Assembly (NCBI GenBank): GCA_963422735.1
Contig: OY730476.1
Span: forward strand, 4,768,001-4,832,000
Origin: Candidatus Latescibacterota bacterium
Lineage (GTDB): Bacteria; Latescibacterota; UBA2968; UBA8231
Reading direction: 5' to 3'
Length of the DNA: 64,000 nt
The notes below the pieces were generated by a model. That model saw only the letters and a list, made by a program, of their open reading frames with translations, was not told the DNA's origin and made no database searches. Position numbers and translations under genes: made by a program. Below, piece after piece: positions 3,455 through 32,933 of this stretch. Numbering within the stretch: the stretch's first letter is position 1; each line of letters starts with the position of its first letter.

Positions 3455-3555
3455 AAAGGCCTCCTAGTGGAAATTTTATCTATTCCAATAAATATATTAG
3501 TGCCGTGTAATTTTACTAAGTGCTAATTATGTTACTGACGTTGTGCAGTTTGCCG

Positions 3556-3695: not shown

Positions 3696-3741
3696 TAATG
3701 TCAGTTATAATATTGTGGACAATAAGCAATTCTGTATCAAA

Positions 3742-11769: not shown

Positions 11770-12102
11770 GATATAGCTCTGGTGAATGCGATCAGAGAAG
11801 GGGAAAAACAGAGACTGTTTCCAAAGAACAGATATTTGAAACTTTAGAAAGTGTATCTTGAATTCAGAAACAGCTTCACGAGAGACCTCAGACGCATCCG
11901 AGACCAATCTATTAACTAAAGAGCGTGTCAAGACAGCGATAGAGCAAATTGAGAGAGTAGATGACCTTACAAGGGCAAGTAATGTCCAAAAGTTTCAAGG
12001 CAGCGGAAATCATTACCGAGTTCGGATTGGCAATTGAGCGAGGATACGGTAGTTTTTGTACTATGTTTGCCGCGTCAGGATATTTATCGATACTTCCCAT
12101 AG
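11770..12102 (+). pseudogene. Decayed antitoxin fragment plus RelE/ParE-family toxin pseudogene
   Basis: DIALVNAIREGEK/TETVSKEQIFETL antitoxin tail; GTG11851 YLEFRNSFTRDLRRI / ERVKTAIEQIE..KFQGSGNHYRVRIGN / EDTVVFVLCLPRQDIYRYFP* split by frameshift and deletion. Confidence 0.8.
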
Positions 12103-12127
12103 CCAGCAATGCGATCTTCGCCTAAAA

Positions 12128-13831
12128 ATGCTCAATTTCTTTCTGCTCCTACTTCTCTTATCCGTCTCCCTCTACGCCAACCCCCACTTCCACGACGCCA
12201 CCCAAGAAGCGGGCATCGGCTTTGTCCACGTCAACGGTGCGAATGGCCAGAAGTTCGTCATTGAAACGGTCGGCCCCGGCGTCGGTTTTTTCGATTGCGA
12301 CGGCGACGGTCGCCTCGACATCTACCTAGTCAACGGAGCCGCCGTGCCTGGGACCGAATACGATCCTGCGCCGCAAAACGCGCTCTACCGGAATAGAGGC
12401 GACGGCACCTTCGCCGAGGTAACGGAGTACGCCGGCGTCGGCGACACGGGCTACGGCATGGGCTGCGCGGTCGGCGACCTTGAGAACGACGGTGACCTCG
12501 ACCTGTACGTGACCAACTTCGGTGCCAATGTGCTATATCGGAACGAGGGCGATGGAATGTTTGCGGATGTGACGGTTGCGGCTCAAGTCGGCGACGAGGG
12601 CTGGGGGGCGAGTGCTGCGTTTGCCGACATTGACCGCGACGGCTTCGTCGATTTGTACGTGGGCAACTACCACGATTTTTCCTATGCCAACCATCGAGTC
12701 TGCGCCGAGGGCGGCAGCGGCTTGCAACTCTACTGCGGCCCGGAGGCCTTTGATGGGGTGGCCGATGTGCTGTATCGGAACGAGGGCGACGGCACCTTTG
12801 CCGACATCACGGCTGCGGCCGGGCTGGGCAGCGCCGAGGGCAAGGAGCTAGGCGTGGTCTTCGGCGATGTGGATCTCGACGGCGACCCAGACCTGTACTT
12901 GGCTAACGACAAGGCCTTGAACTTCTTGTATCTCAACGACGGCACTGGCCACTTTTCGGACGAAGCACTGCTGGCCGGAGTTGCGTACAACGAGGATGGC
13001 GATGTCGAAGCGGGCATGGGCGTTGACATGGGCGACTACGACAACGACGGCGACCCAGACCTTTTTGTCACCAATTTCCAGTGGGAGACCAATACGCTGT
13101 ACAAGAATCTTGGCGACGGCACCTTTGTCGATGAAACTTTCCTCGCTGGGTTGGGCAAGGGCAGTATTGCCTACTTGGCGTGGGGTACGCGCTTTTTCGA
13201 TGCCGACAACGACGGCGACCGCGATCTTTTTGTCGCCAATGGCCACTTGGAAAGCGATGTCGAGCAATACGAGAACGCGACCTTCCCCCAGCGCAATCAG
13301 CTCTTTCTCAACGTTGGCGATGGTCGCTTTGAGGAATATCCAGAGGACGGCGGTGCCTTGTCATTGAAACGGGTCAGTCGCGGCGCGGCGTTTGGCGACT
13401 ACGATGACGATGGCGATATCGACGTGCTGGTGGCCAATGTCGCCGCCCGGCCAACCTTGATGCGCAACGATGGCGCGGGTGGCCACTGGGTGCGCTTGCG
13501 GCTAGAAGGCCGCGACAGCAACCGAGCGGGCATCGGCACCCGCGTCGAAGTCATAAGCGGCGGACAAATTATATCATATAAGTCATTGAAAAATAGTAAC
13601 TTATCCCCCCCCCCCCCCATCGCAGTCGCAAGCAGTCGGCAAGTACAGATAGACGAAGTACGCTCAGGTGCTAGCTTCCTCTCGCAGAGCGACCTGCGGC
13701 TGCACTTCGGCTTAGGAATGGACAAAAGCATTGAGCGCGTGGTCGTCTATTGGCCAAGCGGTCGGGTCGAAGAATACGCGGACTTAGGCGTAAACCAAGA
13801 GCATCTGCTCGTCGAAGGCGGGACCCGATGA
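12128..13831 (+). CDS. CRTAC1/ASPIC-UnbV FG-GAP protein with a 25-aa in-frame insertion
   Basis: Signal peptide; DxDxDG blades; ASPIC-UnbV domain interrupted by IISYKSLKNSNLSPPPPIAVASSRQ. Confidence 0.9.
   Translation: MLNFFLLLLLLSVSLYANPHFHDATQEAGIGFVHVNGANGQKFVIETVGPGVGFFDCDGDGRLDIYLVNGAAVPGTEYDPAPQNALYRNRGDGTFAEVTEYAGVGDTGYGMGCAVGDLENDGDLDLYVTNFGANVLYRNEGDGMFADVTVAAQVGDEGWGASAAFADIDRDGFVDLYVGNYHDFSYANHRVCAEGGSGLQLYCGPEAFDGVADVLYRNEGDGTFADITAAAGLGSAEGKELGVVFGDVDLDGDPDLYLANDKALNFLYLNDGTGHFSDEALLAGVAYNEDGDVEAGMGVDMGDYDNDGDPDLFVTNFQWETNTLYKNLGDGTFVDETFLAGLGKGSIAYLAWGTRFFDADNDGDRDLFVANGHLESDVEQYENATFPQRNQLFLNVGDGRFEEYPEDGGALSLKRVSRGAAFGDYDDDGDIDVLVANVAARPTLMRNDGAGGHWVRLRLEGRDSNRAGIGTRVEVISGGQIISYKSLKNSNLSPPPPIAVASSRQVQIDEVRSGASFLSQSDLRLHFGLGMDKSIERVVVYWPSGRVEEYADLGVNQEHLLVEGGTR
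13571..13618. repeat. 27-bp imperfect palindrome (ATAAGT-N15-ACTTAT) followed by a C14 homopolymer inside a CDS
   Basis: Palindrome 13578-13604; poly-C 13605-13618. Confidence 0.9.
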
Positions 13832-15198
13832 GGGTGCTGCTAATCTGCCTCGTCCTGTGCGCTTGCATCGAGGAAAGCCCGCGAGAAAAAGTGCGCCCCG
13901 GCGCGGCCATGGACGCTGAAGTGCTCTTTACACGCGGCGCCGCGCTCGCCTCCCAAGGCCGCCACATCGAGGCCATTGACGCCTACCAACAGGCGGCCGC
14001 GCTCGCGCCGAGGTCCGCCAAAATCCACTACAACCTCGGCAACGCCTACGTACGCCAGCTCGATTACCCGCGCGCGATTGCGTTCTATCAGCGCGTATTG
14101 GTGCTGGATTCGACGCACGTATCAGCACGGCACAACCTCGCGGCGATGTACGTCAAACAGCTCAACTACGCTCAAGCCATTGACGAACACCGCCGGGTCC
14201 TCTCGTTAGACCCGGGCCATCTGACGACCTACTACGACCTCGGCTACATCTACTTCTTGCGCGGCGAGTACGGCGAGGTGGAAACGCTGCTGCAAGCGGG
14301 TTTGGACCGCGACTCGACCCATGCCTCTTTCTATCGGCTCTTAGGTCGGACGCGCCTGAAGGAACTCGACTTTGAGCGGGCCGCGGCGGCCTTGACGCGC
14401 GCCGTCGCGCTGGACAGCACGTACGCGGCCGCGTACGTCGATCTGGCGCAGGTGGAACTCAAGCGGCGCACGTACGCGGCCGCCGAACGAGCCGCCCGCC
14501 GCGCCGTCGCGCTCGACCCCCTGTCTAAGGAGGCACACTTCGCGCTGGCCAATGCCCTCAAGCGGCTCGGCCACCGCGAGGAGAGCACTGAGGTGCTAGC
14601 GCAGTTCCGCACCCTTGACCAACAACTCGACAAAATCGACGACCAACTGCGGATGCTGGGCAATGCGCCCGACGACCACGAGGCGCGGGCGCAACTGGGT
14701 CTGCTGTACACCGAGCAAGGCCGCTTGGCCGAAGCGACCCAAGCGTATAGGCTGGCCGTGCGCCTCGCACCGGACAGCCTGCGCTATCGCAACAATCTAG
14801 GCAACATCTACCTGCGCTTGGGCCAATTCGCCGAGGCCGTCGCCGAGTATCAGGCCGCGCTGACCTTGGATCCAAAATACGCCAAAGCCCACTATAATTT
14901 GGGCCAGGCGTACATGCGCTTACAGCACTTTGACGAGGCCGTGGCGAGCCTTGCCGAAGCGCGCCGCTTAGCGCCGGAAGACGCGGAGACCCATTACTTT
15001 TTGGGGCTGCTACACGCGCGCGCCGGCGACTACGCCAAGGCCGCCGAGATGCTGACTGTTGCGGTGGCAGTCCGACCGGACTGGCTCGACGCACGGCAGA
15101 AGTTAGCCGTGGCGTACTTGAAGTCCGGCAAGATAGAAGAGAGCAAGCGGGAGCTAGCGGCGATCCGGCAAATGAAAGAGAGCAGGCAGCATGAGTAA
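13828..15198 (+). CDS. TPR-repeat lipoprotein
   Basis: ATGA overlap with the upstream gene; LCAC lipobox; many YNLG/NNLG TPRs. Confidence 0.9.
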   Translation: MRVLLICLVLCACIEESPREKVRPGAAMDAEVLFTRGAALASQGRHIEAIDAYQQAAALAPRSAKIHYNLGNAYVRQLDYPRAIAFYQRVLVLDSTHVSARHNLAAMYVKQLNYAQAIDEHRRVLSLDPGHLTTYYDLGYIYFLRGEYGEVETLLQAGLDRDSTHASFYRLLGRTRLKELDFERAAAALTRAVALDSTYAAAYVDLAQVELKRRTYAAAERAARRAVALDPLSKEAHFALANALKRLGHREESTEVLAQFRTLDQQLDKIDDQLRMLGNAPDDHEARAQLGLLYTEQGRLAEATQAYRLAVRLAPDSLRYRNNLGNIYLRLGQFAEAVAEYQAALTLDPKYAKAHYNLGQAYMRLQHFDEAVASLAEARRLAPEDAETHYFLGLLHARAGDYAKAAEMLTVAVAVRPDWLDARQKLAVAYLKSGKIEESKRELAAIRQMKESRQHE

Positions 15199-16762
15199 GC
15201 GTTGGATGGGAACGGCACTTTGCGCGGCGCTGGTCGGCCTAAGCGGCTGCGCCGAGGACGGCCCGGCCGTGGCCGCTGAAGATGCCGTCTTGGTGGAGGT
15301 GGGCCAAACGGCGGTTCGGGTGGTGGATTACCGCCAGTACATCGCGCGGGTGGCACCGGAATTGCGGGCGGATTACGGAACCGAACAGCTCTTGGAGGCC
15401 ATCGTCGAGCAAACGCTGCTCGTGCAGGAAGCCGAGCGGCGGGGGTTGGGCGAGAGTGCAGAATTTTTGCAATGGCAGGCGCAGGCGCAGGCGCGGCTGG
15501 TACAGCAGGCTTTGTACGAGCGCGCCGGAATCGTCCAGCCCGAGGTCTCCGAAGAGGAGCTGCGAGCCTATTTCCAGCGCAGCCCATACAACCGCCGCGT
15601 GCGCTTTAGCCTGCTGATGGTGCGCGATCAAGAGCAGCTACCAGGGATTTTGGCCGCGCTCGCCGAGGGCGCGGACTTTGAGGAGCTGTCAATGCGGCAC
15701 TCGCAGGACTCGCGGATTCTAGAGCGCCGCGCCGACATGGGCTATCACCGCTGGGGCGATACCATGGCCTCGCACGCCGCCCTGACCGAAAGGGCCTTCT
15801 CCATGCAGGTCGGGGAGATCGCCGAGCCGATGCAGGTGGCCGACGGGTACTTTCTTATCAAGCTCACGGACATGCACCCGGTTAGCTTCGAGCAGGAGCG
15901 GGAGACCATTCGGCGCTTGGTGCTGCGAGAAAAGCTCGGGCGGCAGCTTTTGGTTTACTACGATACCCTGCATGTGCGCTATAATGTGCGCTACGAGCCG
16001 GATGGGTTGGCGGTGGGCCGGTCGCCAGAGGCCGTTGTGGCTGCGTACGATGGCGGGGTGCTAACGGTCGCCCAGGCCCGCGAACTGCTAAAGGGCCAGG
16101 GCGCGGGCGAAAAGGTGCTGCGGCGCGAGCTCGGGCGGCGCGTGTTGGTCTCGCTCGAAACCGCGCGGCTTGCGCTCGCCGACGATCCGGACCTGCAGCG
16201 CGAACTAGAGCGACTGCGGCAGATGGAGCTTGCGCGGCGCTTGCAGGACGCGCTACAAGCGCAAGTGCCACCGCCCAATCCCAACGGCCTGAGCTTGTTT
16301 TACGAGGAGCACAAGCTCCGTTATACCGCACCGGCCGAGGTGGAGGTGCGCCGGCTGCTCGCCGGCGACGAGGCCGAGGGCACTGCCATCGTCGAGCGGA
16401 TGCGCGCCGGTCGCGATACGACCGCGCTGGTCGATCGCTTCGTCAGCGTGATTTACGGCCGCGGCGCGCTGGAGGGCGACAATCCGGTCAGCCGCGCCCT
16501 GCTCGCCGACGAAGGGGCTTTCCACGGCCCCTTTGCCACGGATAATGGCTATATTGTCTTACAGGTGTTGCGCCGCCGTCCAGCTCGGCTGCCGCCACTG
16601 GACGAAATCCGCGAGCAGGTGGAGGCGGATTGGGCGACAGCGCAGCTCCAAGCTGCGGTCAAAGAGTTGGCCGCGTCTCTGCGTCAGCGCCGCGCCAACG
16701 AAATCCGCTTCAGCCCAGACGCTGTGGCGTTAGCCCTTTTGGCTACTTCTCATGGCGAGTAA
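15191..16762 (+). CDS. SurA/PrsA-like lipoprotein with parvulin-type domains
   Basis: Lipobox LSGC; GADFEELSMRHSQD, AFSMQVGEIAEPMQVADGYFLIKL. Confidence 0.8.
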   Translation: MSKRWMGTALCAALVGLSGCAEDGPAVAAEDAVLVEVGQTAVRVVDYRQYIARVAPELRADYGTEQLLEAIVEQTLLVQEAERRGLGESAEFLQWQAQAQARLVQQALYERAGIVQPEVSEEELRAYFQRSPYNRRVRFSLLMVRDQEQLPGILAALAEGADFEELSMRHSQDSRILERRADMGYHRWGDTMASHAALTERAFSMQVGEIAEPMQVADGYFLIKLTDMHPVSFEQERETIRRLVLREKLGRQLLVYYDTLHVRYNVRYEPDGLAVGRSPEAVVAAYDGGVLTVAQARELLKGQGAGEKVLRRELGRRVLVSLETARLALADDPDLQRELERLRQMELARRLQDALQAQVPPPNPNGLSLFYEEHKLRYTAPAEVEVRRLLAGDEAEGTAIVERMRAGRDTTALVDRFVSVIYGRGALEGDNPVSRALLADEGAFHGPFATDNGYIVLQVLRRRPARLPPLDEIREQVEADWATAQLQAAVKELAASLRQRRANEIRFSPDAVALALLATSHGE

Positions 16763-17804
16763 TTCGCTCGTTCTGCAACCTGCCTATATCGTTGGTCGCC
16801 AGCAGGACTATGTGTGGTTTGTCGGCCTGCCCTTTGCTGCGGTCTGCTTTGCCCTCGTGTCGGGGCACTACCTGCCGGGGGCCGCGCTGGCGGCGATCGC
16901 TTTGTGGGTGACCATTCCGCACCACTTCGTCACTTGGCTGCGCGTCTATGGCTCGCCGGCGGAGTTTGCCCGCTTCAAGGAGCGCTTCATCCTCGGGCCG
17001 GTGGTGTTGATCGCCTTTGCCTACGGCCTGATCCAGTGGGCGCCGTTGAGCTTGGTGCTGATCGTGACGTTGTGGGATCACCAGCACAGCTTGATGCAGC
17101 AATACGGCTTTGCGCGCGTGTACGATTTTAAGGCCAAGGCCGGCTCGCCCGCCACCGCCAAGTTCGACTTGGCCTTCAATTGGATTTTCTTCGGCAACAT
17201 GCTCGTAGTGTCGCCGCTTTTTTCTACGGTCTGGGTGCGCATGTTGCACGAGTGGCACCTGCCCATCGGCGCGGAGGCGGTAAAGACAATACACCTCGTC
17301 TCGTGGACCATTGCCATTGCCTACGGCCTGATCTACTTGGGGCACGTTGCCTATTGTGCCCGGCGCGGCTTGACGCTCAACCCCCTCAAATACGCCTTTC
17401 TGCTGTCGAGCTATTTCCTGTGGTACTTCACTAGTTTTACCACGGCCTATCTGCTCGTCTTTGCAGTGGCGCATCGAATCATGCACGGGATCCAGTACAT
17501 TGTCATGGTGTATTTCTACAACCGCCACAAGGTCGAGCGCACGGGCGGCGACTCGGCCCTCCTCCGCTACGTGTCGGGCAAGGGGGGCGTCAAGTTCTTT
17601 CTTCTGCTGTGTGCAGCCTACGCCATTGTCTTTCACGCGCTGAGCGAGGGCTTGGTGCGCGACTTTGGCTTCGGCTTGGTTGGCTTCAACACTAATTTTG
17701 ACCTCTTCAGCTATTCGCTGCTCAGTTCCTTTGCCCTGATACATTATTACTACGACGCATTTATATGGAAAGTGCGGAAAAAGGATGTGCAGGAGGGGCT
17801 GTAG
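16752..17804 (+). CDS. Uncharacterised His-motif polytopic membrane protein
   Basis: ~8-9 TM segments; PHHFVTW, DHQHSLMQQYGF, HRIMHGIQY, HYYYDAFIW motifs. Confidence 0.75.
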   Translation: MASNSLVLQPAYIVGRQQDYVWFVGLPFAAVCFALVSGHYLPGAALAAIALWVTIPHHFVTWLRVYGSPAEFARFKERFILGPVVLIAFAYGLIQWAPLSLVLIVTLWDHQHSLMQQYGFARVYDFKAKAGSPATAKFDLAFNWIFFGNMLVVSPLFSTVWVRMLHEWHLPIGAEAVKTIHLVSWTIAIAYGLIYLGHVAYCARRGLTLNPLKYAFLLSSYFLWYFTSFTTAYLLVFAVAHRIMHGIQYIVMVYFYNRHKVERTGGDSALLRYVSGKGGVKFFLLLCAAYAIVFHALSEGLVRDFGFGLVGFNTNFDLFSYSLLSSFALIHYYYDAFIWKVRKKDVQEGL

Positions 17805-17938
17805 TAGTGATTAGTGGTTAGTGGTCAGTGGCCAGTCCCCGCACCACCAGAAGTGTGGAGACTGGCCACTGACCACTGGCCACTGACCACTGGCCACTGA
17901 CCACTGATCACTGATCACTAACCACTGGCCACTAACTA
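17805..17938. repeat. Intergenic hairpin built from inverted heptamer arrays (YAGTGGY / RCCACTR)
   Basis: AGTGGTCAGTGGCCAGTC...GACTGGCCACTGACCACT inverted arms; right arm extended by further heptamers. Confidence 0.9.
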
Positions 17939-17950
17939 GGAGATTGAGCT

Positions 17951-19798
17951 ATGCTCGAAGTCGTCCTCGCCATCGCCGCTGTCGCCGTCGCCGTCGCCGC
18001 GGCCATGGTCCGCCAAGCCGCGGCCGATGTGTGCTACGACCTCTCCGACGGGGAGCGCCATCCGCACAAGTGGGGCTACACGGATACCCGCTTTGAGTTC
18101 GACGGGCCTAAGACTGTGCGGGTTACTGGCAGTCGCTATCCGCTGGCCGGCTTCACCATGCCGCACTTCATCCCCTTTGTCGAGGAGATGCTTGAGGTTC
18201 CGATTGACCCCAACGAGATGGCCGTCGAAAAAGAGGTCCAAGTGGTGCCGCCCTCGCGGGCAGACGCAAGTCTCGTCGCCGCTTGGCAGGACGCGCTCGG
18301 TGCCGAGCGCGTTTCGCTCGACGACGAGGAACGCCTAATCCACAGCCACGGCCAGCTCAGCGTCGATGAGGTCTATCGCCTGCTCTACGGCGATGCCTTG
18401 GAGCGCGTGGTCGATCTGGTGCTTTATCCAGAGAGCGAAGACCACGTGTGCGCCATCGTGCGCCTCGCCTCCGAGCACAGTGTTTGCCTTGTGCCCTACG
18501 GCGGCGGCACCAACGTCAGCGGCGCGCTGGCCCTGCCCGCCGACGATGGCCGCGTCTTTGCCTCGGTCGATATGCGGCGCATGAACCGGATCGTCGATCT
18601 CGACGCGGAAAACCTCCAAGCTTGCATCGAAGCGGGGATTTCGGGCAAGGAGCTAGAGCGGGAACTCGCCGCCCGGGGCTTTACCGTCGGCCACGATCCC
18701 GACAGCATTGAGCTTTCGACCTTGGGCGGCTGGATCGCCACCAACGCCAGTGGCATGAAGAAAAACCGCTACGGCAATATCGAAGACATCGTCCTCGAAG
18801 CGACCTTGGTGACGCCGACCGGCGCAGTGGAGACCCTGCACACCACGCCGCGCAACTCGACCGGCATCCAGCCGCGCGGGCTGCTCTTTGGCTCGGAGGG
18901 CAACCTCGGCATCATTACCAAGGCTGTGCTCAAGATCCATCCCCAACCGGAAGTACGCGAATATGGTTCGCTGGTATTCAAGTCCTTTGCCCAAGGCGTG
19001 GAGTACTTGCAGGCATTGCGGCAGACTGGGACTTTGCCGGCGAGTATCCGCTTGGTCAACAACCAAGAATTCCGCTTTGGACAGGCCCTCAAGGCCGCAC
19101 CCTCTTCTGTAAAGCGCCTCAAGGAAAAGGTGCAGAAGCTCGCCTTATTCAAGCTGTTGGGATTTGACCCGTTAAAAATGGCGGCGTGTACGATCGCTAT
19201 GGAAGGGACTCGCGCCGAGGTCGCCTACCAGAAGCGGACGATTATCAAGCTGGCCAAGGCCCACGGCGGCAAGAGCGCCGGTGCCACCAACGGCCGACGC
19301 GGCTACACGCTGACCTTTGGGATCGCCTATATCCGCGACTTTTTGAACCAGTTCGATTTCTTGGGCGAGACCTTCGAGACTTCCGTGCCTTGGAGCCGCA
19401 TCCACGACGTGACGCAGGCCGTGCAAGCGGAACTGATCGCCCAGTGTAGTACGCGCGGCGTTGCCGGGCGGCCCTACCTGTCGTACCGGGTGACGCAGAC
19501 GTACCACACGGGGGTGTGCATCTATTTTACGATGGGGTTTTCCGGGCGGGGATTGGCGCGGCCCATTGAGGTCTATCACGACATCGAGCACAGGCTGCGG
19601 CAGACGATCTTGGACAGCGGCGGCTCGCTGTCCCACCACCACGGGATAGGCAAAATCCGCCAGAGCTTCGTCCAGCACATCCAGAGCGACAACAGCATCG
19701 AGGTCCTGCGAAAGACCAAAGAAGCACTGGATCCGCAGAATATCTTTGGCATTCAGAATGGAATTTTTGGGAGTGCGTGCCGGAAGCCTGAGGAATAA
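17951..19798 (+). CDS. agpS: Alkyl-dihydroxyacetonephosphate synthase (AGPS/ADPS)-like FAD-linked enzyme, animal-type
   Basis: WGYTDTRF..TGSRYPLAG, PYGGGTNVS, GHDPDSIELSTLGGWIATNASGMKKNRYGNIED, PASIRL, RVTQTY..GVCIYF, GGSLSHHHGIGK match eukaryotic AGPS blocks from memory. Confidence 0.85.
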   Translation: MLEVVLAIAAVAVAVAAAMVRQAAADVCYDLSDGERHPHKWGYTDTRFEFDGPKTVRVTGSRYPLAGFTMPHFIPFVEEMLEVPIDPNEMAVEKEVQVVPPSRADASLVAAWQDALGAERVSLDDEERLIHSHGQLSVDEVYRLLYGDALERVVDLVLYPESEDHVCAIVRLASEHSVCLVPYGGGTNVSGALALPADDGRVFASVDMRRMNRIVDLDAENLQACIEAGISGKELERELAARGFTVGHDPDSIELSTLGGWIATNASGMKKNRYGNIEDIVLEATLVTPTGAVETLHTTPRNSTGIQPRGLLFGSEGNLGIITKAVLKIHPQPEVREYGSLVFKSFAQGVEYLQALRQTGTLPASIRLVNNQEFRFGQALKAAPSSVKRLKEKVQKLALFKLLGFDPLKMAACTIAMEGTRAEVAYQKRTIIKLAKAHGGKSAGATNGRRGYTLTFGIAYIRDFLNQFDFLGETFETSVPWSRIHDVTQAVQAELIAQCSTRGVAGRPYLSYRVTQTYHTGVCIYFTMGFSGRGLARPIEVYHDIEHRLRQTILDSGGSLSHHHGIGKIRQSFVQHIQSDNSIEVLRKTKEALDPQNIFGIQNGIFGSACRKPEE

Positions 19799-20591
19799 GA
19801 CAGTCGTTATCACCGGTGCTTCTGCGGGCTTGGGCGCGACGCTGGCGCGGGAATGCGCCCAGCAGGGTGCGCGGCTGGTTATCTTGGCGCGGAATGCCGA
19901 GCGGCTGGAGGCTGTCGCCCGCGAGTGCGAGCAGTTGGGGAGCGAGGTGCTGACCGTCGTCGGGGATGTCGCCCTAGCCGAGGGTGGCAAGCGGCTGGTG
20001 GAGGCCGCGATTGAGGGCTTTGGGCGCATAGACTATTTGGTCGCCAACGCCGGCGTCAGCATGTGGACCGAGTTTGCCGCGATCGAGGATGTGGCCCTGT
20101 TCCGTACGCTGATGGAGGTGAATTACTTGGGGGCCGTGTATTGCGTGCATCCCGCGCTGCCGCATCTAAAGAAAAGCAAGGGCCTATTCGTGGCCATTTC
20201 GTCCATTCAGGGACAGGTGGGGGTGCCGTTGCACACTGGGTACTCGGCGTCCAAACACGCGCTACAGGGGTTTTGCGATGCGCTGCGAATGGAGGTGGCC
20301 TTGAGCGGGGTGGGGGTGATGACCGTGCTCTTGCACTGGCTCGAGGGGACGGAGCTGCGGCAACGCGCACTGGGGAGGGACGGAAAGGCGTTGGGCGACG
20401 CATCGCGCAAACACCGGGCGGGAGCGGTGAGCTCGGCGGCGGCCGCGCAGGCGATTGTGCGCGGGATGCAGAAGCGTCAGCCACAGCTCTACGTGCCTAG
20501 GCGACTCAGATTGCTGGCTATAGCCCACGCCCTGTGGCCGGCGCTGGCCGAGCGAGTCGTCAAGGGGAAGGTGGCGCGGGAGGAAGAGTAG
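19758..20591 (+). CDS. Short-chain dehydrogenase/reductase, DHRS7/DHRS7B-like
   Basis: TGASAGLG, NAG, AISSIQG, YSASKHALQGF; start 19758 or 19773, overlapping the AGPS 3' end. Confidence 0.85.
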   Translation: MEFLGVRAGSLRNKTVVITGASAGLGATLARECAQQGARLVILARNAERLEAVARECEQLGSEVLTVVGDVALAEGGKRLVEAAIEGFGRIDYLVANAGVSMWTEFAAIEDVALFRTLMEVNYLGAVYCVHPALPHLKKSKGLFVAISSIQGQVGVPLHTGYSASKHALQGFCDALRMEVALSGVGVMTVLLHWLEGTELRQRALGRDGKALGDASRKHRAGAVSSAAAAQAIVRGMQKRQPQLYVPRRLRLLAIAHALWPALAERVVKGKVAREEE

Positions 20592-20595
20592 GGGG

Positions 20596-23349
20596 CTACG
20601 ATCGCGTGATGCGGAGCCGTTCGGTCAGTTCGAGATCGTCCAGAATCTGCTGCAATTCCGTCTCCATGTTCTGGGCAAATTGCGAACGGACGCTCACGGT
20701 ACATTCTACGCCGACGCTCAGGTCTTCCCCGTCGCGCAGCTTGGGCAGGATCTTGGTGCCAAGCCGGTTCCACACTTCTGGCGGGACGGTGCCAGCAAGC
20801 CGCAGCGTTGTCTTTTGATTGTCCGGGCTCGGGCCCGATTCAGGCGCTGGCTGAGGTGCTGGCTCTGGGCGCGGCGCGGGTTCCGGGGGCGTCTGCGGCG
20901 AATTTTCAGACGCGGCTTTAAGTTCTTTAGCTTTGGCCTTGGTCAGCAAGAATACATCCGCTTCAAACGCCACTTCCTCGGCTTGGACCGACTCTTCATA
21001 CCACAGCCGATCGTAGTTGCCGTCAGGGTTTGCGCCAGAGGCTAGGCCGAATTCTCCCTTGGACACAAACTCGGTGATCTGGCGACGAAGGGTCATGTCG
21101 GGGTCGATCAACCGCGTTAACGAGCCGTCCAGGAAGCTTTGCCGCAAGCCCAAGAGCGGCCAAGTGCCCGTTTCCTTGAATGCGGGGGGCCAGTGCCGGT
21201 CGATGTAGCCGGTGCCAACGCGCTCGTTGAGCAGCGCCTCGGACTTGAGGGCCGCAATGATCCGCCCGCAGAGCGTCTCGCTGGCGCTCGCGTGACCTGC
21301 CCCGAGGTCGATGATCTTGAGGCCGTTATGACTATGGGAATCCGAAAGCGCCACGAATCGATAGCCGGCCCAGACTTCGTCTTTAGCGGCCTCCTCCATT
21401 TCCTTGACCTTGGCCCGAACTTCGGCGCGGTCGGCATAGTCGAACTCGGCGCCCAGTACCCCCTCTTCTACTTCGTGCGCCACCCGCTGCCAGGCAAGCC
21501 ATAGCTCGACCCGCCCCCGCATCTCCCATCCCGGCTTCTTCGCGCACCAGATCAAGGCGCCCGAGTAAAGCCGCGGCGACTTGCCCCGTTGTCTCGTCCA
21601 GTCGGCGATGCGATCGACGGCCCTGCCTTCCCGCCAGTCGATGGCGGGATCGAAGACGATCAACGCAAGACGTGGAGAATCCGGTATGGCAGTGCTATCA
21701 GCCGGAAAGAAAACGATGGGAAGGCTGGCACCACGCCGAAACTCGCCTTCAACAAGCTTGCGGATTGCTGGTTTGGTCTCGCCTTCCTCGTCCAGCGATG
21801 CACGCCGATCGCTGACGACCTTCTTCAACGTGGCCTGATGGTGGATGCGATAGCCGTCGGTGCCGACCCGGCGGATAAAGAATCCCGATCCTTCGAGTGC
21901 CGTCGCCGCATTGTCGATGGTCGTGGTCTCGACTTGGGGTTCGCCGAGCGCGAAACGCAGTTCGGGCAGATGGGCCACCTTGTCCACCTGGCCCCCGGAG
22001 GACTCGAACAGGATGGTCGTACCCGTGCGGCGGTGGATGTCGCGCAATGCCCCCCGGGTGTCGGCATCCAGAGGTCTGGCACGGGCCGCCGTCCCCACGA
22101 GGTCGGCGTCAATGGCGACGTCGAGCCGCTGCTCGCCCAACTGACCCAGGACCACGGCACGGAACTCCGGCACATCCAGCGGCGCCGATCCCAAGGTGAT
22201 CAGCGGCTCGGTTCGCGCCTTTTGGAAATGCTCGCGCGCCGCCCAGGAAACCCACTGCGCCAGCATCGCGAGTGCCCCACGGGTCTGTTGAAACTGGGCG
22301 AGCGAGCGCCACTTGCGCTGGAACACCGACAGGGTCGCCGGATGGAACGGATAGCACGCCTCGAACCGACCCCGCAGAAACTCCCTTGCCTTGGCCTCCG
22401 TCGTCGCGGTATCGACCGCCAGCCACTCGGCCGGCAGACGGGCCGTGCGCTCGAAACACCAGTCCGCGTAGGTTTTGGCCACTCTTTTACGCATACGCTC
22501 GTTGCCCAAGTCTTCGAACAGACGCCGGCGCACGACTTCGCTGATCTCGGATTCGTCATTGGCGATCAGGTCGCGGGCAACGCGGCGCACCACTTTGGTG
22601 ATCCGCTCCTGCCATTGCTGATCCCAGTCCGTCATTTCGACTTGGCTGCGCGGCAGGCTGATGACCGCTGCTGCTTGCGTGGTGCCGGTGACGGCCACCG
22701 TTAGATTCTGAATAAAGGCGTGAAAGCTCTCGGCCATGCTCCGGTGGCGGTTGACGAAGTTCAGCACTTCATCGAACAACAGCAGCACGGGTGCGTCCGC
22801 AGCGGCGAATACGTTGGCCAGCGTCTCGGTTCCCGGCGGCGTAGCTTTCGCAGCCGCACCGAGCACGGCCACGCCCTTGTCACCCGCCAGTTGACGGGCT
22901 AGGTCGATCCACGGCGTCTCTCGCCCCTGGGCCGGGTCCCAGGCATTGCCGACGAACACGCCGACGCGAGCAGGAGGCGCTTGTGCAATCCCCGCCTCGT
23001 TGAGGAGGTTTGCCACCCCGTGGAACTGGGTGGCCTCCGCGCCGGCATGGGCGATATGGTACAGCGAAGCCAGCGTATGCGTCTTGCCGCCGCCGAACTG
23101 GGTGACGAGCGTCAGAACCGGCGCGGTGTTTCCAGTTTGTCCGGCCAGCCGCCGGAGCACCATTCCCGCATGCTCCTTCAAGGCACGGGTGAAGCAGGTG
23201 CGCGAAAAGAACTGGGCCGGGTCGCAATAGTCCGCCGGTGCTGTACCGGCCACCACCTGCTCTAGGGCGATGGCAAACTCGTCCGGGCTGAACGAGCGGC
23301 CTTCGCGTACTTCCTTGCGGAGCGTGACAACTTTGTACCAAGGGTCCAT
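20596..23349 (-). CDS. DUF499 family ATPase (BREX-related defence system)
   Basis: TQFGGGKTH Walker A; LLLFDE Walker B; YPFHP and FQQTRG motifs; Pro-rich C-terminal linker. Confidence 0.9.
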   Translation of the reverse strand: MDPWYKVVTLRKEVREGRSFSPDEFAIALEQVVAGTAPADYCDPAQFFSRTCFTRALKEHAGMVLRRLAGQTGNTAPVLTLVTQFGGGKTHTLASLYHIAHAGAEATQFHGVANLLNEAGIAQAPPARVGVFVGNAWDPAQGRETPWIDLARQLAGDKGVAVLGAAAKATPPGTETLANVFAAADAPVLLLFDEVLNFVNRHRSMAESFHAFIQNLTVAVTGTTQAAAVISLPRSQVEMTDWDQQWQERITKVVRRVARDLIANDESEISEVVRRRLFEDLGNERMRKRVAKTYADWCFERTARLPAEWLAVDTATTEAKAREFLRGRFEACYPFHPATLSVFQRKWRSLAQFQQTRGALAMLAQWVSWAAREHFQKARTEPLITLGSAPLDVPEFRAVVLGQLGEQRLDVAIDADLVGTAARARPLDADTRGALRDIHRRTGTTILFESSGGQVDKVAHLPELRFALGEPQVETTTIDNAATALEGSGFFIRRVGTDGYRIHHQATLKKVVSDRRASLDEEGETKPAIRKLVEGEFRRGASLPIVFFPADSTAIPDSPRLALIVFDPAIDWREGRAVDRIADWTRQRGKSPRLYSGALIWCAKKPGWEMRGRVELWLAWQRVAHEVEEGVLGAEFDYADRAEVRAKVKEMEEAAKDEVWAGYRFVALSDSHSHNGLKIIDLGAGHASASETLCGRIIAALKSEALLNERVGTGYIDRHWPPAFKETGTWPLLGLRQSFLDGSLTRLIDPDMTLRRQITEFVSKGEFGLASGANPDGNYDRLWYEESVQAEEVAFEADVFLLTKAKAKELKAASENSPQTPPEPAPRPEPAPQPAPESGPSPDNQKTTLRLAGTVPPEVWNRLGTKILPKLRDGEDLSVGVECTVSVRSQFAQNMETELQQILDDLELTERLRITRS

Positions 23350-23379
23350 CTATTGCTACCTCTCAGAATCGCAGTTTTC

Positions 23380-23580
23380 CCGTGCGTTGTTGCGCTCGGC
23401 GGTCGGCAAGAAGCAACGCACACACGGATGTCTTCAGGCTCCGGATCAGAGACGCCCGGAGCGTGGTCTCATGTCTAGGACATGCTCTACGGCAATGTGC
23501 ATATCGCGAATGACGGGTTTGCCGCCGAAGACATCCGGGCGAGCGGTGATGCGTTCGAGCAGTGCTTCTTCAGTAATCAT
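23380..23580 (-). pseudogene. DUF433 (antitoxin-like) pseudogene
   Basis: MITEEALLERITARPDVFGGKPVIRDMHIAVEHVLDM then stop at 23446; EPEDIRVC tail lies in another frame. Confidence 0.8.
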
Positions 23581-23628
23581 GGTTGCTCCTCCAACGATTT
23601 CGGGTTCCGAGCGACATCGTAGAATGGT

Positions 23629-26586
23629 TCACTTCGGCATGACCAGCAGCATGGCGTCGAGTAGGCGTTTTTCGTTGCAGCCTTGAGGATAGAGAGCCGA
23701 CAGCGCGTTGGCAAGGCGGAGAAAGTCCGGGCCGCGGTCCTGCTCGGCGTCGATCAGGGTGCGCAGCGCGCCAGAGTGGCCATTGGCTTGCAGCAGCATG
23801 GCGGCGTGTACACGATCCAGAGTCGTGGCCTTGATTGCTTGCAGCTCTACCTCCCCGTCGGGAACGAGCCTTCTGACTCTGCGCGGATTCCCGACCTTTG
23901 GCGCGGTTTCCAATTCCGGGAAGAGGGTTGTTTGTATGTTGGCACCGCTCTCGACCCAGTCAGCGGCGGCGCTGACGCCGTCTTCGCCGAAGAGTTCCTT
24001 GGCGCGTTCGGACACTGGTAGGAGGCGTACGACGCCTTTTGCTTGGCCGATGACGCGGCCGGTCCAGGTGCTGAGGTCGATGCCCATGGGCTGGGCGAAA
24101 CGGCGCACCACATCGAAAGGCAGGCTGAATCCCTTGGCCGCGGCCTTGGCGGATCCCTCTTCGCCTTCATCGTCTTGGTCGTCGTTGTCGGCGGGTGCTT
24201 CCGTGCTTTGCAGCGTCCAGAGGAACAGCGCGGTCAAGCGGGCGTCTTCTTCGAGTGCGCCGGCCAAACCGTTGCGCGCCGTTGCTTCGGCGCTGCCGAG
24301 CACCTGTTCGAGGGCCGCACGGCCCACCACTTCCCACACCCTCTCCAGATATTCGGGCAGCCTGACCTCGCGGCCATCGACCGTTTCGACGGCGCGATAG
24401 CGGCTGTAGATTTCCAGGGCCGGGCCGATGCAGGCGAATACCAGATCGGCGCCGCGGATGCCTTCGCCTTGCAGGCGCTCCATCCAGTCGCCGACACGAT
24501 TAGGAAGTTCGCGCAGGACATCTGCCCAGTCGCCAACCGGAGCATCTTCGGGGCGAGGGCGGCAGATAAGGTGGACGCTGGTGGCAAGGGCGGCGGAATC
24601 GCGGGCGCGGAGGCGGGTCTCGCTCTCGGTCGCAATCGGCCAGGAGCCGGTGATGGTCCAGCCGCCGCGGATCAGGCCGGAAAGCAGCGCTTCCCAACCC
24701 TCGGTGGTCTTGTGGGCGAAGACGACGGAGCCGACTCCGTCTTCGGCCAGGATGCGGCGGCCCTCGGCAAAGGCTTTCGCCATCGTCTCTTCGAACCATG
24801 CGTCGTCCTTGGGACAGCCATCGCATTGTTTGGTTTCGTCTTGCACCGCTTCGCGAATCTTGGGAGAGAGCGGGTTGGCTGTGTCGAACGGGTCGCGCAG
24901 TAGGGGATGGCCGGGCAGCGTGCGCTTGAGCCAGACGAGAAAGAAGTCGGAGAGGTCCGCGTAGGGAATCGCGTCGTAGTAAGGAGGGTCGGTGAACCAG
25001 ACGCCGGCGGATTGGTCGGGAAGGGGGTGGTTCGTGGCGTCGGCGGGTTGGATCTGGCCTGTCGAAAGTAATGGGAACCCCTCTACGACTTGTTCCACAT
25101 TCGCCAATGCACCGTCGAAATGTTCCGACCTGCCGCCGGAAATTATGGTTTCTGGAAAAGTCCATGTAATTGGTAAGGCATGCATCCCAAAGGCCGGTGC
25201 AACTGATGAGTCTGGCCTTAGCCGTGCGTTGCCGTTACAAGCCCTAGCAAAGCGGTCTAATGCACATGCCAACAGCGCACGTACTGCATCTGAACTGCAC
25301 ACGTTCCCTATTATGTTAGCTATAGCCACCAGCGCCGCCTTCTGCCGCGCGGTGAACAGGTCGCCCCACTGGAGCATGCCGTAGCGTTGCACGCTGAACG
25401 CCCTGCCGGCACCCGAACCGCCGCCGGCAGGCGTCGGCTCATCCGGTATCGGACACATGCCTTGCTTCCCGTCGCGCTCCCATTCCTCCAGGATATGCGC
25501 CACCCGCTCCTGTGCCTTCCGCACCGCTGTATAGTCCGCATCCGTCGGCAGCCGATAGTGCCGCCCTTTCTGCCCCGGCTTGAGCGTCACCACCGCGGCC
25601 ATCCGCGCCCCGCCCGTTCGCCGTCCCTCCGCGTCGAACACCACATCCGCGCCACCTCGCTCCGCCGCAAGCTGCGCCCGCACCCGCTCCGGCGGCAACA
25701 CCGTCTCGCAACAAAGGCAGGTCGCCTTCGCCCGCGTCACGGTGCCGGTGCGCACTTCGCGGTCCGTTTTCGGCTCGAAAACCTCGAACTCCACACGCGG
25801 GGCCGCGCCTTCGGGCCGCTCGACCCGGTGCCGCAGCGCCCGCTTGCGCTTGGGCTTTTTGCACAGCCAGAACGAACGCATAAGCGGGATTTCCGCGCCG
25901 CAGTTCGGCGCTTCGCAGCGCACAGAGCGCGCCCACAAATAGGCAATCGGGGTCGCGCCGTCCGGGTCCTTCGGATAGAGGTCGGCCAACTCCCGCTCGG
26001 CTTTCCGCTTGATCTCGGCCCCGGCCTTGCGCAGTTCATCCGCCAGCTTCGGCCCGTGCCGCGGAATGTCCTCCAGCATCACCTTGAGGATCAGGCAGGC
26101 CACCGGGTTCAGATCGCTGGCGAACGCCTCGCAGCCCAGCCGCAACGCCTCCAGCGGGATGGATCCGCCGCCGGCGAACGGGTCCACGACCACTGGGGTT
26201 TCCTCGCCGTGCGCGGCCTTCACTAATGCATGGCTTACATTGAGATAAGTACGGTTCGCGGCAAGGTCCCAGTTGGCGAAGTCGGCGATGAACTTGAGCA
26301 GGCCACGACGCATTTCCTGATCCGTTTCGCTTGGCCCGCAGCCAACTTGCGGAAGCAGATCACGCGCCCGCCGCTTGAACGCATCGGGGCAGTGCGGGTC
26401 GCACGGGTCCGGCAACAGCAACGCCAGCAGTACCGCCCGCGACGACGCCAAGGGCCGCCGCGCCCACCACAGATGTAGCGTCGAGGGATGGCCGTGGCGA
26501 ATGGACTTCTCGCGCACCGCATGTTTGGAGACCGCGGCGATGGGGAAATCCACTTCGGCGAGGCGTTTGCATTCTTTGGGGATCAT
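23629..26586 (-). CDS. DUF1156 adenine-specific DNA methyltransferase
   Basis: LHLWWARRPL; DPFAGGGSIPLEA (motif I); TDPPYYD (motif IV); Cys pairs. Confidence 0.92.
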   Translation of the reverse strand: MIPKECKRLAEVDFPIAAVSKHAVREKSIRHGHPSTLHLWWARRPLASSRAVLLALLLPDPCDPHCPDAFKRRARDLLPQVGCGPSETDQEMRRGLLKFIADFANWDLAANRTYLNVSHALVKAAHGEETPVVVDPFAGGGSIPLEALRLGCEAFASDLNPVACLILKVMLEDIPRHGPKLADELRKAGAEIKRKAERELADLYPKDPDGATPIAYLWARSVRCEAPNCGAEIPLMRSFWLCKKPKRKRALRHRVERPEGAAPRVEFEVFEPKTDREVRTGTVTRAKATCLCCETVLPPERVRAQLAAERGGADVVFDAEGRRTGGARMAAVVTLKPGQKGRHYRLPTDADYTAVRKAQERVAHILEEWERDGKQGMCPIPDEPTPAGGGSGAGRAFSVQRYGMLQWGDLFTARQKAALVAIANIIGNVCSSDAVRALLACALDRFARACNGNARLRPDSSVAPAFGMHALPITWTFPETIISGGRSEHFDGALANVEQVVEGFPLLSTGQIQPADATNHPLPDQSAGVWFTDPPYYDAIPYADLSDFFLVWLKRTLPGHPLLRDPFDTANPLSPKIREAVQDETKQCDGCPKDDAWFEETMAKAFAEGRRILAEDGVGSVVFAHKTTEGWEALLSGLIRGGWTITGSWPIATESETRLRARDSAALATSVHLICRPRPEDAPVGDWADVLRELPNRVGDWMERLQGEGIRGADLVFACIGPALEIYSRYRAVETVDGREVRLPEYLERVWEVVGRAALEQVLGSAEATARNGLAGALEEDARLTALFLWTLQSTEAPADNDDQDDEGEEGSAKAAAKGFSLPFDVVRRFAQPMGIDLSTWTGRVIGQAKGVVRLLPVSERAKELFGEDGVSAAADWVESGANIQTTLFPELETAPKVGNPRRVRRLVPDGEVELQAIKATTLDRVHAAMLLQANGHSGALRTLIDAEQDRGPDFLRLANALSALYPQGCNEKRLLDAMLLVMPK

Positions 26587-26864
26587 CGAATCTGCTCCTC
26601 GGCCCAGCGGATGGTTTCCGGGATCGTATCCCCGGCCTCCTCCAGCAGAGCCAGCGGGTGGCCCAGGTTATGCACATACGGAAAGTCGATGTCGCGCGCA
26701 ATCATCACGGCCTTGATAGCCTTCTCGGCTGCCTTCTGTGCATGGAAACACAGGTCTTCCAGATAAACATCAGAGCGTCGATGCGACGCCAGGGCCAGAT
26801 TGCTTCTGGCGCGGTTCAGCCACTCCCGTGGGTCGTCGGGCGGATACCGCTCAAGCCGCTTCAT
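26583..26864 (-). pseudogene. HEPN-domain protein, C-terminally truncated (93 aa)
   Basis: WLNRARSNL..CFHAQKAAEKAIKA..FPYVHNL; ends at the methylase ATG without the usual C-terminal RY-containing helix. Confidence 0.75.
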
Positions 26865-27177
26865 ACACGACCCTGCCTTCTTGCAGGGCGGGCCTGATGA
26901 CCAGCGCATGGCTATCCTTGTACCGCTCCACATCCCGCGGAGTTGCCATGACGATATCTACCGCAGTGCCGACGCCGTACAGCCTGCGATAAATCCTGGC
27001 CGTGAGTTTGCGTAAATTCGGTGCATCCTTGACGATGAGCAGGTCCACGTCACTGTGCGGCCCCACTTCCCCCCGGGCAGCAGACCCGAAGAGGATAATC
27101 CGCTCCGGCTGTGCCGCCTCCACGATGCGCCGAATGATCTCGTTCAGCGTGTCTGGATCAAACCCCTGTTGCTTCAT
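26851..27177 (-). CDS. Minimal nucleotidyltransferase (MNT)
   Basis: ILFGSAARG....SDVDLLIV; paired with HEPN. Confidence 0.9.
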   Translation of the reverse strand: MKQQGFDPDTLNEIIRRIVEAAQPERIILFGSAARGEVGPHSDVDLLIVKDAPNLRKLTARIYRRLYGVGTAVDIVMATPRDVERYKDSHALVIRPALQEGRVVYEAA

Positions 27178-27277
27178 GATATGCCATGTCTTTGTAAACC
27201 AAAGCCCACCCGGTACCGTTTGTCTTGAGTCGTATCAGTATCTTGAATCACTTGGTCACGACTAACTTGACAGATCT

Positions 27278-27805
27278 TCAGATATTGCTCCGAATATGTA
27301 TGGCTTCTTCGACCGCGTTCGCAAGGTGTTCAGAAATCCAAGCATATCGTTCCTGGCTGTTTTTTCCTGCCGGAATATAGCACTTGACGATTGATGACAG
27401 TCGCCTACCATCGTTCCCGTAAGAAATGGAATCAAAAGGATTCGCGCCCTGTGACGATATATAGCCGTCTGCATCCTTCAGTCCGTGTATATGTATACCA
27501 ACCACACCCATTTCGTCGTTCCATGACTTGATGATCTCGTGATTGATCCACTTGCGATTTGCCGTTTTTTCTCCAACTAAGACAACAGTGAAGGACCGAC
27601 CGGACATCTGATTTGCGATCCACTTCTTGATTGCCGTGTCTCCACCATTTTTCATCGTCTCCCAATCGTTATCGGTCGCAGGTCTGTTTCCTTCAATGAC
27701 GCCCATATTGCGCACTTGGGCGGCCCGCCAGTTGTCTGGTCCGTAGTGGAAGCTGTAGAAACTCTTCTTTTTTTCATGGTTATAGCATCCTTCACATTTA
27801 GCCAA
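27278..27805 (-). CDS. TIR-domain protein (DUF1863/ThsB-like); likely natural ATG at 27777 is out of frame
   Basis: FYSFHY..DNWRAAQVRN, VVLVGEKTANRKWINHEI with the conserved Glu; only a TTG at 27805 gives an open frame. Confidence 0.8.
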   Translation of the reverse strand: MAKCEGCYNHEKKKSFYSFHYGPDNWRAAQVRNMGVIEGNRPATDNDWETMKNGGDTAIKKWIANQMSGRSFTVVLVGEKTANRKWINHEIIKSWNDEMGVVGIHIHGLKDADGYISSQGANPFDSISYGNDGRRLSSIVKCYIPAGKNSQERYAWISEHLANAVEEAIHIRSNI

Positions 27806-28184
27806 TGATCAGCGCCGCACCGACCGCCAAGCCCAAAGCAACGTAGAATGGCACCAAAGTGATGGAAAAGGTCGCTTTGAGCCACGTTCGTTTGAAAGCA
27901 CAGACATCCATCGAAAAATCGACAGCCGTCTCGTCTAAAGTTCGCACATGGTCGTACAGGTCGCGAAACAACCGCTCCTGCCGAAGGAAGTAGCCGTCCA
28001 GTCCCCAGAAGACCAGCACCGGCACAAAGCCGACCCATGCGAATTCAACGCGCCCTTCCCTGACCAGCAATACGAGCAGTGCCGACACCAGGACCACGGC
28101 CCACCCCTTCATGCGGAACGAAGCTCCGGCGAGACGGTTGATCACGCCTTGGATGAATTCGAGATGCTTGAGTTTTGCTTCCAT
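27798..28184 (-). CDS. Small 3-TM protein of a family commonly found beside TIR genes
   Basis: RBS AAGGAG; KHLEFIQGVINRLA..SF.MKGW, FWGLDGYFLRQERLFRDLYD; three hydrophobic segments. Confidence 0.8.
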   Translation of the reverse strand: MEAKLKHLEFIQGVINRLAGASFRMKGWAVVLVSALLVLLVREGRVEFAWVGFVPVLVFWGLDGYFLRQERLFRDLYDHVRTLDETAVDFSMDVCAFKRTWLKATFSITLVPFYVALGLAVGAALIIG

Positions 28185-28271
28185 GGATCTCTCCTTGGAT
28201 GTTCCGGTCAACTGCGAGTCTTTCCGAAAATTGGACGGCGAAACGACGCCCCTCCAAGCGGTCGGCCGCGC

Positions 28272-31712: not shown

Positions 31713-31723
31713 ATTTACCACAT

Positions 31724-32836: not shown

Positions 32837-32895
32837 TTAGGTGCTCCTTTTATTGATGAGGGGATGGCAAACCGGACGTAACAACGTACTAGAAA

Positions 32896-32924
32896 TTGAC
32901 AGCAGGCAAAAGACGGCAGATGTT
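32896..32924 (+). promoter_or_regulatory. Possible sigma70 promoter (TTGACA-17 bp-GATGTT) giving a near-leaderless transcript
   Basis: Perfect -35 at 32896; weak -10; ATG32934 lacks a clear RBS. Confidence 0.3.
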
Positions 32925-32933
32925 GTTTCTGGT

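Follow-up and report, generated by a model that had tools for sequence, protein, structure and literature searches.

In a stretch of 64,000 nucleotides from a Candidatus Latescibacterota bacterium (contig OY730476.1, positions 4,768,001 to 4,832,000; ~60% G+C; hereafter the window), we examined two overlapping genes, one for an ortholog of alkyl-dihydroxyacetonephosphate synthase (AGPS) and one for a classical short-chain dehydrogenase/reductase (SDR). The evidence, drawn from sequence homology, conservation of the catalytic residues, the order of the genes, and their joint occurrence across genomes, indicates that the two genes probably form a single transcription unit encoding two consecutive steps of the dihydroxyacetone phosphate (DHAP), or "peroxisomal-type", route to ether lipids. 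The initial annotation had described them as an animal-like cassette for two consecutive steps of the peroxisomal pathway in a bacterial operon, which was right in substance and overstated in calling the route undescribed and in suggesting reliance on a host.

The first gene encodes a flavoprotein that had been called an alkyl-DHAP synthase on the basis of its motifs. The open reading frame (ORF) and all of these motifs are present (WGYTDTRFEF...TGSRYPLAG, SGMKKNRYGNIED, PASIRL, RVTQTYHTGVCIYF, and SHHHG), and the protein has the two-domain organization of VAO/PCMH-type flavoproteins (Pfam FAD_binding_4, E 7.9e-40; FAD-oxidase_C, E 9e-34). The top match in a PDB sequence search was guinea-pig AGPS (4bby, E 5e-145), with residues 39-603 of the query aligned to 94-656 of the chain and the AGPS-specific N-terminal part included. 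Dictyostelium AGPS scored 1.3e-84 and the next flavoenzyme family just 5.9e-28, such that AGPS structures lead the ranking by >100 orders of magnitude. GlcD equivalog models, whose cut-offs are 568 and 897 bits, scored 174 and 92. Because the GlcD scores fall far below cut-off and AGPS structures top the PDB ranking, we assign the protein as a real AGPS ortholog and not as a generic GlcD or lactate dehydrogenase, a grouping that by the initial annotation's own account would have refuted the idea. Residues R367, Y525, and H562-H564 align with guinea-pig R419, Y578, and H615-H617, the catalytic residues of the animal enzyme, and all of them are invariant across 12 bacterial homologues. Residues 3-20 are hydrophobic and are followed in the family consensus by basic residues, which suggests an N-terminal membrane anchor.

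The second ORF (19746-20591, plus strand) encodes 281 residues if translation begins at TTG and 277 from the in-frame ATG at 19758, and its frame overlaps that of AGPS by 53 or 41 nt, respectively. Since the SDR starts 41 nt before the AGPS stop codon, the two proteins are probably translationally coupled. The overlapping SDR and its motif, both reported earlier, were borne out. The protein contains VAISSIQGQVGVPLHTGYSASKHA, scores 164.8 bits against Pfam adh_short, and exceeds the cut-off of NCBIfam PRK06181 (286 versus 215 bits). Among 18 orthologs there is no variation in the cofactor motif TGxSxGLG, the NAG motif, or the N122-S149-Y162-K166 tetrad, and residues T19, G20, S22, G24, G26, N97, A98, and G99 are likewise invariant. 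The Arg of ILAR, located after strand 2, is a feature that we take to mark a preference for NADP(H). The N-terminus, MEFLGVRAGSLRNK, lacks a hydrophobic stretch and leads directly into the Rossmann motif. An N-terminal membrane anchor is characteristic of DHRS7B (PexRAP), though not strictly defining. Among the top PDB relatives of the SDR are HSD11B1 (11-beta-HSD1; E 3e-27) and yeast (3R)-hydroxyacyl-CoA dehydrogenase (2e-26). DHRS7B, the animal third-step enzyme, is itself a classical SDR, and the DHRS7 subfamily lies close to HSD11B1 and HSD17B4 (PMC13200781). The proximity to HSD11B1 fits the idea of a DHRS7B-like function for the bacterial SDR, without proving it.

Conservation of the gene pair was assessed in two samples. 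For the first, one genome per species was scanned, giving at least 599 matching stretches, at least 568 of which encode AGPS relatives; the best 80 loci were kept and searched for the SDR with tblastn. Among the matches listed, the closest AGPS homologues come from metagenome-assembled genomes labelled Latescibacterota and, in some cases, Gemmatimonadota. In 68 of the 80 loci the SDR is found downstream of AGPS in the same orientation, and at 56 of these it starts no more than 150 nt from the AGPS match. The other 12 loci include four with less than 300 nt of contig left, two with about 1 kb, and six with the full 6 kb. The second sample consisted of 151 genomes of the phylum, with the SDR called at E<=1e-40. 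AGPS was detected in 109 genomes and the SDR in 104, always in single copy with one match per genome; all 104 SDR-positive genomes are AGPS-positive and none carries the SDR alone, although these genomes are related and hence not independent observations. Genus g10 retains both genes in unlinked form, indicating that an unlinked copy of the SDR is possible.

Five genomes carry AGPS without this SDR (G084, G093, G020, G107, and G082). Two of these are fragmentary assemblies (G084 and G093), and in G020 half an SDR is found beside AGPS on a 7-kb contig. The remaining two, G107 (L091, G107:C96) and G082 (L092, G082:C4), harbor a second AGPS lineage, 46% identical, that is directly trailed by a different classical SDR. 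The G107 SDR is 33% identical to the window SDR, and the G082 SDR is 50% identical to that of G107. In G107 the genes form a five-gene operon in which an acyl-CoA synthetase, a fatty acyl-CoA reductase (FAR), as well as an acyltransferase-like protein that we call X precede AGPS and the SDR. The pattern of AGPS followed by an SDR holds over two AGPS lineages and several families. The linkage, whose lack of conservation the initial annotation had named as a refutation, is conserved, and the SDR appears to be a dedicated partner of AGPS and a concrete candidate for the alkyl-DHAP reductase.

G020 (L094 = L070, G020:C112) is also the sole sampled genome that has PlsY and GpsA in addition to FAR, X, and AGPS. 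Behind its AGPS gene, the SDR can be recognized in its C-terminal half only, which could reflect either a broken gene or a faulty assembly.

In close relatives, this locus is represented by contigs from three RNA libraries, which stem from three studies; one contig, 4567 nt in length, spans 16700-20335. These are assembled contigs from relatives ~88-95% alike, which establish presence in RNA libraries and not transcription or co-transcription. We regard them as a weak hint of expression.

All ORFs of the 80 loci were clustered and the clusters annotated, revealing a wider cassette. A FAR with NAD_binding_4 and Sterile domains is found in 27 loci, and X, a protein of ~650 residues that received no Pfam match in the cluster annotation, in 25; the gene order FAR-X-AGPS-SDR occurs in 24. 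A DAGK_cat/YegS-type lipid kinase lies downstream of this cassette in 10 of the 80 loci (including L045:8659-9543) and adjoins an ElbD-like gene in the source genome (L083:9979-10884); it is a candidate alkylglycerol or monoradylglycerol kinase. Across the 151 genomes, X and AGPS occur together in 107, AGPS without X in 2, X without AGPS in 8, and neither in 34.

The initial annotation stated that the window encodes neither a DHAP acyltransferase nor an acyl-CoA reductase, which agrees with the annotated ORFs, a subset of all ORFs in the window. A search of the whole genome located both a FAR domain and X outside the window. The only FAR domain of the source genome forms the N-terminus of an ElbD-like fusion in which Pfam places NAD_binding_4 and Sterile first, AMP-binding next, and Acyltransferase last. 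The genes neighboring this fusion encode, besides the kinase, Lgt, an Oxidored_FMN protein, and another SDR. X has an acyltransferase-like HX4[D/E] signature: all 20 sequences examined share the His, half of them (10) have Asp and the other 10 Glu at the acidic position four residues on, and a VP(I/L) motif IV is present. X matches no NCBIfam model and no PDB profile significantly, and the named Atlas clusters nearest to it belong to PF01553, a weak link at a score of 0.90.

Together, these observations are consistent with the following pathway, in which we infer the substrates, products, and cofactor, as well as the roles of X and the SDR, from sequence and context. X would supply 1-acyl-DHAP, and the FAR domain of the ElbD-like fusion would supply the fatty alcohol, both from genes outside the window. 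Membrane-anchored AGPS would then exchange the acyl chain of 1-acyl-DHAP for the fatty alcohol to give 1-O-alkyl-DHAP. The translationally coupled SDR would reduce the C2 keto group, probably with NADPH, to yield 1-O-alkyl-sn-glycerol-3-phosphate, which a PlsC-like acyltransferase could acylate at sn-2.

Several observations weigh against this assignment. In the PDB search the SDR matched clavaldehyde dehydrogenase best (7e-29), which is not a lipid enzyme. The substrate of the SDR is not readable from its sequence, and in function it is a candidate. Its source names are generic, and the Atlas clusters nearest to a homologue used as the query are all bacterial SDRs with no lipid annotation; for these reasons we dropped the designation DHRS7B-like. 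At six loci (L033, L039, L041, L078, L079, and L080), no SDR is found within the full 6 kb downstream of AGPS. For X, the canonical Glu of motif III is replaced by Met or Thr in 19 of 20 sequences, leaving this motif degenerate; the match to Pfam Acyltransferase PF01553 is marginal (E 1.3e-3; 22.1 bits, or 23.7 with neighbors, against a cut-off of 23); and hhalign comparisons of X with the PlsC-like protein and the ElbD-like acyltransferase domain of the same genome were not significant. From the literature, disruption of MXAN_1676-1675-1674 in Myxococcus xanthus caused a slight drop in ether lipids, making the AGPS route a minor contributor there (PMC9131029), and a preprint on sponges reports that short-chain (bacterial-type) plasmalogens were not found and that the bacterial agps is perhaps unexpressed (10.64898/2026.06.23.733905).

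An SDR that is linked to AGPS could also interconvert fatty aldehyde and fatty alcohol, making or recycling the alcohol cosubstrate without reducing alkyl-DHAP. SDRs often act on aldehydes, the top PDB match is clavaldehyde dehydrogenase, and the sole FAR domain of the source genome resides within a fusion of the ElbD type; M. xanthus ElbD has been proposed to stop at the aldehyde, with fatty alcohol undetected (PMC9131029). However, conservation of the SDR is just as strong in the 24 loci with a stand-alone FAR that carries a Sterile domain, which in eukaryotes is the alcohol-making type. The gene order also places the SDR after AGPS and not after FAR. Moreover, a keto-reductase for alkyl-DHAP would still be required, and the cassette has no further gene linked to it that could fill this role. 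We therefore consider a role in aldehyde or alcohol metabolism unlikely.

Less likely still is a catabolic operon in which the flavoprotein would be an AGPS-like oxidoreductase and the SDR a catabolic dehydrogenase, with no ether lipid made. The divergent AGPS-SDR pair of G082 does sit behind genes for glucokinase, a DeoC-type aldolase, and a HAD hydrolase. The window AGPS, however, is of full length for this family and retains R, Y, and HHH as catalytic residues, no kinase, electron-transfer flavoprotein, or transporter adjoins it, and AGPS orthologs have FAR and the acyltransferase-like gene as neighbors. Use of acyl-DHAP or fatty alcohol from a sponge host, with the bacterium finishing the pathway only, was raised in the initial annotation and finds some encouragement in the location of FAR and the acyltransferase outside the window (among annotated ORFs) and in close relatives present at small shares, under coded names, in sponge-labelled runs, yet it is the least plausible of these alternatives and is not needed, because X and the ElbD-like FAR fusion are encoded elsewhere in the same genome, while sister families encode the full FAR-X-AGPS-SDR cassette and phosphorylated intermediates are, as a general matter, unlikely to cross membranes.

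A bolder extension of the two-step ether-lipid assignment concerns the class as a whole, for which we analyzed 115 genomes (families f1-f4 plus the source genome), several of them single-contig, alongside 36 genomes of other families. PlsY is found in 0 of the 115 class genomes versus 29 of the 36 others, and the GpsA C-domain likewise in 0 of 115 versus 29 of 36. X is present in 113 of the 115 and in 2 of the 36, a near-inverse of the PlsY/GpsA distribution, and X and PlsY coincide only in G020. In the source genome, which is a single contig of 4.95 Mb (95% complete), PlsX, PlsY, and the GpsA C-domain were not found in searches with positive controls; the GlpD C-domain was not found, and no match exceeded the GlpK cut-off. 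Its sole PF01210 match is a 3-hydroxyacyl-CoA dehydrogenase, and just three PF01553-type acyltransferases were identified, namely the ElbD-like domain, a PlsC-like protein of 227 residues, and X. CarF/PEDS1 (PF10520) gave no match in this genome, a result that carries no weight since its control matched nothing in any genome either.

This distribution supports, without proving, DHAP rather than glycerol 3-phosphate (G3P) as the acyl acceptor. It is conceivable, although we hold it only tentatively and on balance think it somewhat improbable, that the class makes its glycerophospholipids mainly or solely by way of the DHAP route, which would then be more than a sideline yielding some ether lipids and would replace GpsA plus PlsX/PlsY or PlsB. 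X would then acylate DHAP, AGPS would turn part or most of the product into alkyl-DHAP, and the SDR would create the sn-glycerol-3-phosphate backbone. Genus g11 argues against such a DHAP-only entry: X is present, the SDR is found in 0 of 5 genomes, the main AGPS is absent, and 4 of the 5 have no AGPS of any kind. The source genome also encodes a weak glycerol-1-phosphate (G1P)-dehydrogenase-like protein of 349 residues (L096:1259-2308; 5fb3, E 1e-10), and the class may possess an unrecognized G3P dehydrogenase, both of which point the same way.

The same genome contains a homologue of geranylgeranylglyceryl-phosphate synthase (GGGPS; L095:5591-6361; PDB 4mm1, E 5.8e-52), which together with the G1P-dehydrogenase-like protein suggests archaeal-type ether-lipid potential beside the AGPS route. 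We rejected GGGPS as the reason why GpsA is missing, since members of the PcrB/GGGPS family occur throughout the phylum (143 of 151 genomes) and thus do not follow a pattern that is specific to the class.

The extent of the unit in the source genome follows from its flanks (Table 1). Since a hairpin lies upstream and a convergent Hma-type defense system lies downstream, beginning 5 nt past the SDR stop codon, the unit consists of AGPS and the SDR alone. The fold of 17800-17950 has an energy of -83.5 kcal/mol (z -9.7), and 0 of 200 shuffled sequences were as good. A TRF array occupies 17861-17933, and contigs of relatives have 16 or 36 other letters in place of 17804-17934. The hairpin is probably a boundary of the transcription unit, outside the enzyme cassette. 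A scan of 17600-20900 for promoters and terminators gave matches no more numerous than in shuffled sequence. Tandem arrays of the hairpin heptamer, CCACTGA, occur at 17808-17935 and 49724-49849, with 25 two-unit pattern matches versus 0.07 expected. The summed depth over this repeat is very high in one RNA-library run, and the repeat is therefore common in that community.

Table 1. Positions of the features discussed, in window coordinates except for the last two rows, which refer to other parts of the source genome.
Feature	Position	Strand	Size	Basis or remark
AGPS ortholog	17951-19798	+	615 aa	Pfam, PDB sequence search, catalytic-residue alignment
Classical SDR, candidate 1-alkyl/acyl-DHAP reductase	19758-20591	+	277 aa	adh_short, PRK06181, linkage to AGPS
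AGGAG Shine-Dalgarno-like site	17938-17942	+		Direct sequence reading; 8 nt 5' of AGPS start codon
Hairpin, inverted arrays of heptamer CCACTGA	17811-17886	no strand		In the 146-nt spacer from upstream operon to AGPS
P0123, polytopic membrane protein	16752-17804	+	350 aa	No Pfam or NCBIfam family
Hma-type defense system	20596-31730	-		PADLOC models, E 7e-95 to 4e-169
HmaC ATPase	20596-23349	-		PADLOC
HmaB DUF1156 adenine methylase	23629-26586	-		PADLOC
HmaA SNF2 helicase with NOV_C domain	28272-31730	-		PADLOC
Four paralogous FG-GAP/ASPIC-UnbV genes	3520-6828, 12056-16762, 32841-36385, 37565-39658			
Multi-domain peptidyl-prolyl isomerase (PPIase) gene	15191-16762			Inside an FG-GAP/ASPIC-UnbV operon
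Multi-domain PPIase gene	1820-3454	-		
X, HX4[D/E] acyltransferase-like protein	C1:1748846-1750783		646 aa	
ElbD-like fusion, FAR / AMP-binding / Acyltransferase	L083:5561-9769	-	1402 aa	

The membrane protein P0123, immediately upstream of the hairpin, accompanies AGPS in close relatives only. We had considered it as a lipid desaturase on account of its His-rich motifs and rejected this idea, as it matches no Pfam or NCBIfam family and is a companion of AGPS in only 16 of the 80 loci. P0123 has 740 relatives in a representative library at E<=0.001, many with an N-terminal domain of this type followed by TPR repeats. Its gene overlaps that of the upstream PPIase and is separated from AGPS by the strong hairpin, and we assign it as the last gene of an upstream FG-GAP/ASPIC, TPR, PPIase operon, outside the cassette. 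This operon looks like a split form of proteins that are fused elsewhere. Three of the four FG-GAP/ASPIC-UnbV paralogs in the window have TPR repeats, either fused or in an adjoining gene. A further ORF of 970 residues (6353-9265, plus strand) has no Pfam family at E<=1e-5 and overlaps the end of the 3520-6828 ORF; it may not be a real gene.

AGPS in bacteria has precedents. The initial annotation held that characterized bacterial routes use other enzymes and that the present one might be an undescribed bacterial alkyl-glycerol route; the first statement fails on the known M. xanthus AGPS operon MXAN_1676-1675-1674 (PMC9131029), and the second claims too much, because that operon and agps of Latescibacterota are both already in the literature. 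MXAN_1676 is ~42% identical to human AGPS and adjoins a FAR-GNPAT fusion and an epimerase/dehydratase-type protein (PMC9131029; PMC13012113). Among Latescibacterota genomes from the Black Sea, 67 of 92 have agps homologues and 50 of 92 have ElbD homologues (PMC11868695), and agps and elbD are also known from sponge-symbiont Latescibacterota (10.64898/2026.06.23.733905). In the text of the papers searched, we found no description of the AGPS-SDR pair or of X in bacteria, and none of a DHAP-only start of bacterial phospholipid synthesis. What is new here is the dedicated SDR partner, its position within a FAR-X-AGPS-SDR cassette, and the failure to detect PlsY and GpsA anywhere in the class.

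In the literature searched, no gene is assigned to alkyl-DHAP reduction, which is the third step of the AGPS route in bacteria, and a single-copy SDR that always accompanies AGPS is a concrete and easily assayed candidate for it. Surveys to date screen only agps, elbD, and ger; the cassette provides a genetic handle on the organisms that, in sponges and in marine waters, produce alkyl glycerol ethers of the non-isoprenoid kind. Whether every peroxisomal step has a bacterial partner also bears on the origin of the eukaryotic pathway, for which the AGPS phylogeny is left unresolved in the cited PNAS paper. If the bolder extension were true, a whole bacterial class would begin its phospholipids from DHAP, an exception to the PlsB or PlsX/PlsY scheme.

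Compared with the mammalian peroxisomal pathway (FAR1/2, GNPAT, AGPS, and DHRS7B), the predicted bacterial route has the same order of chemistry, from alcohol supply through DHAP acylation and acyl/alkyl exchange to keto reduction. Its AGPS is clearly orthologous and shares the catalytic residues, and its putative reductase is, like DHRS7B, a classical SDR. In contrast to the mammalian genes, the bacterial ones are arranged in an operon, and the bacterial AGPS has an N-terminal hydrophobic anchor, whereas animal AGPS carries a peroxisomal targeting signal. X is not recognizably GNPAT, and the bacterial SDR, unlike DHRS7B, has no N-terminal hydrophobic segment. In yeast, Ayr1 provides an example of an SDR that reduces 1-acyl-DHAP with NADPH.

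The M. xanthus AGPS operon resembles the Latescibacterota cassette in being built around AGPS, to which it adds functions of FAR and acyltransferase type as well as a reductase-type partner that is nucleotide-dependent (PMC9131029; PMC13012113). It differs in that the Latescibacterota FAR and acyltransferase are encoded by individual genes or at other sites of the genome, and the candidate acyltransferase X is from another, unnamed family. The partner here is a classical SDR and not of the epimerase/dehydratase type, and the gene order is FAR-X-AGPS-SDR. With respect to M. xanthus ElbD, no acyl carrier protein domain was detected in the Latescibacterota fusion by Pfam at E<=0.01, and the neighboring genes are not elbA-C or elbE. 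The fusion nevertheless has the same succession of FAR, AMP-binding, and Acyltransferase domains as ElbD (PMC9131029), and the source genome, like that of M. xanthus, holds both the AGPS and the ElbD-type routes.

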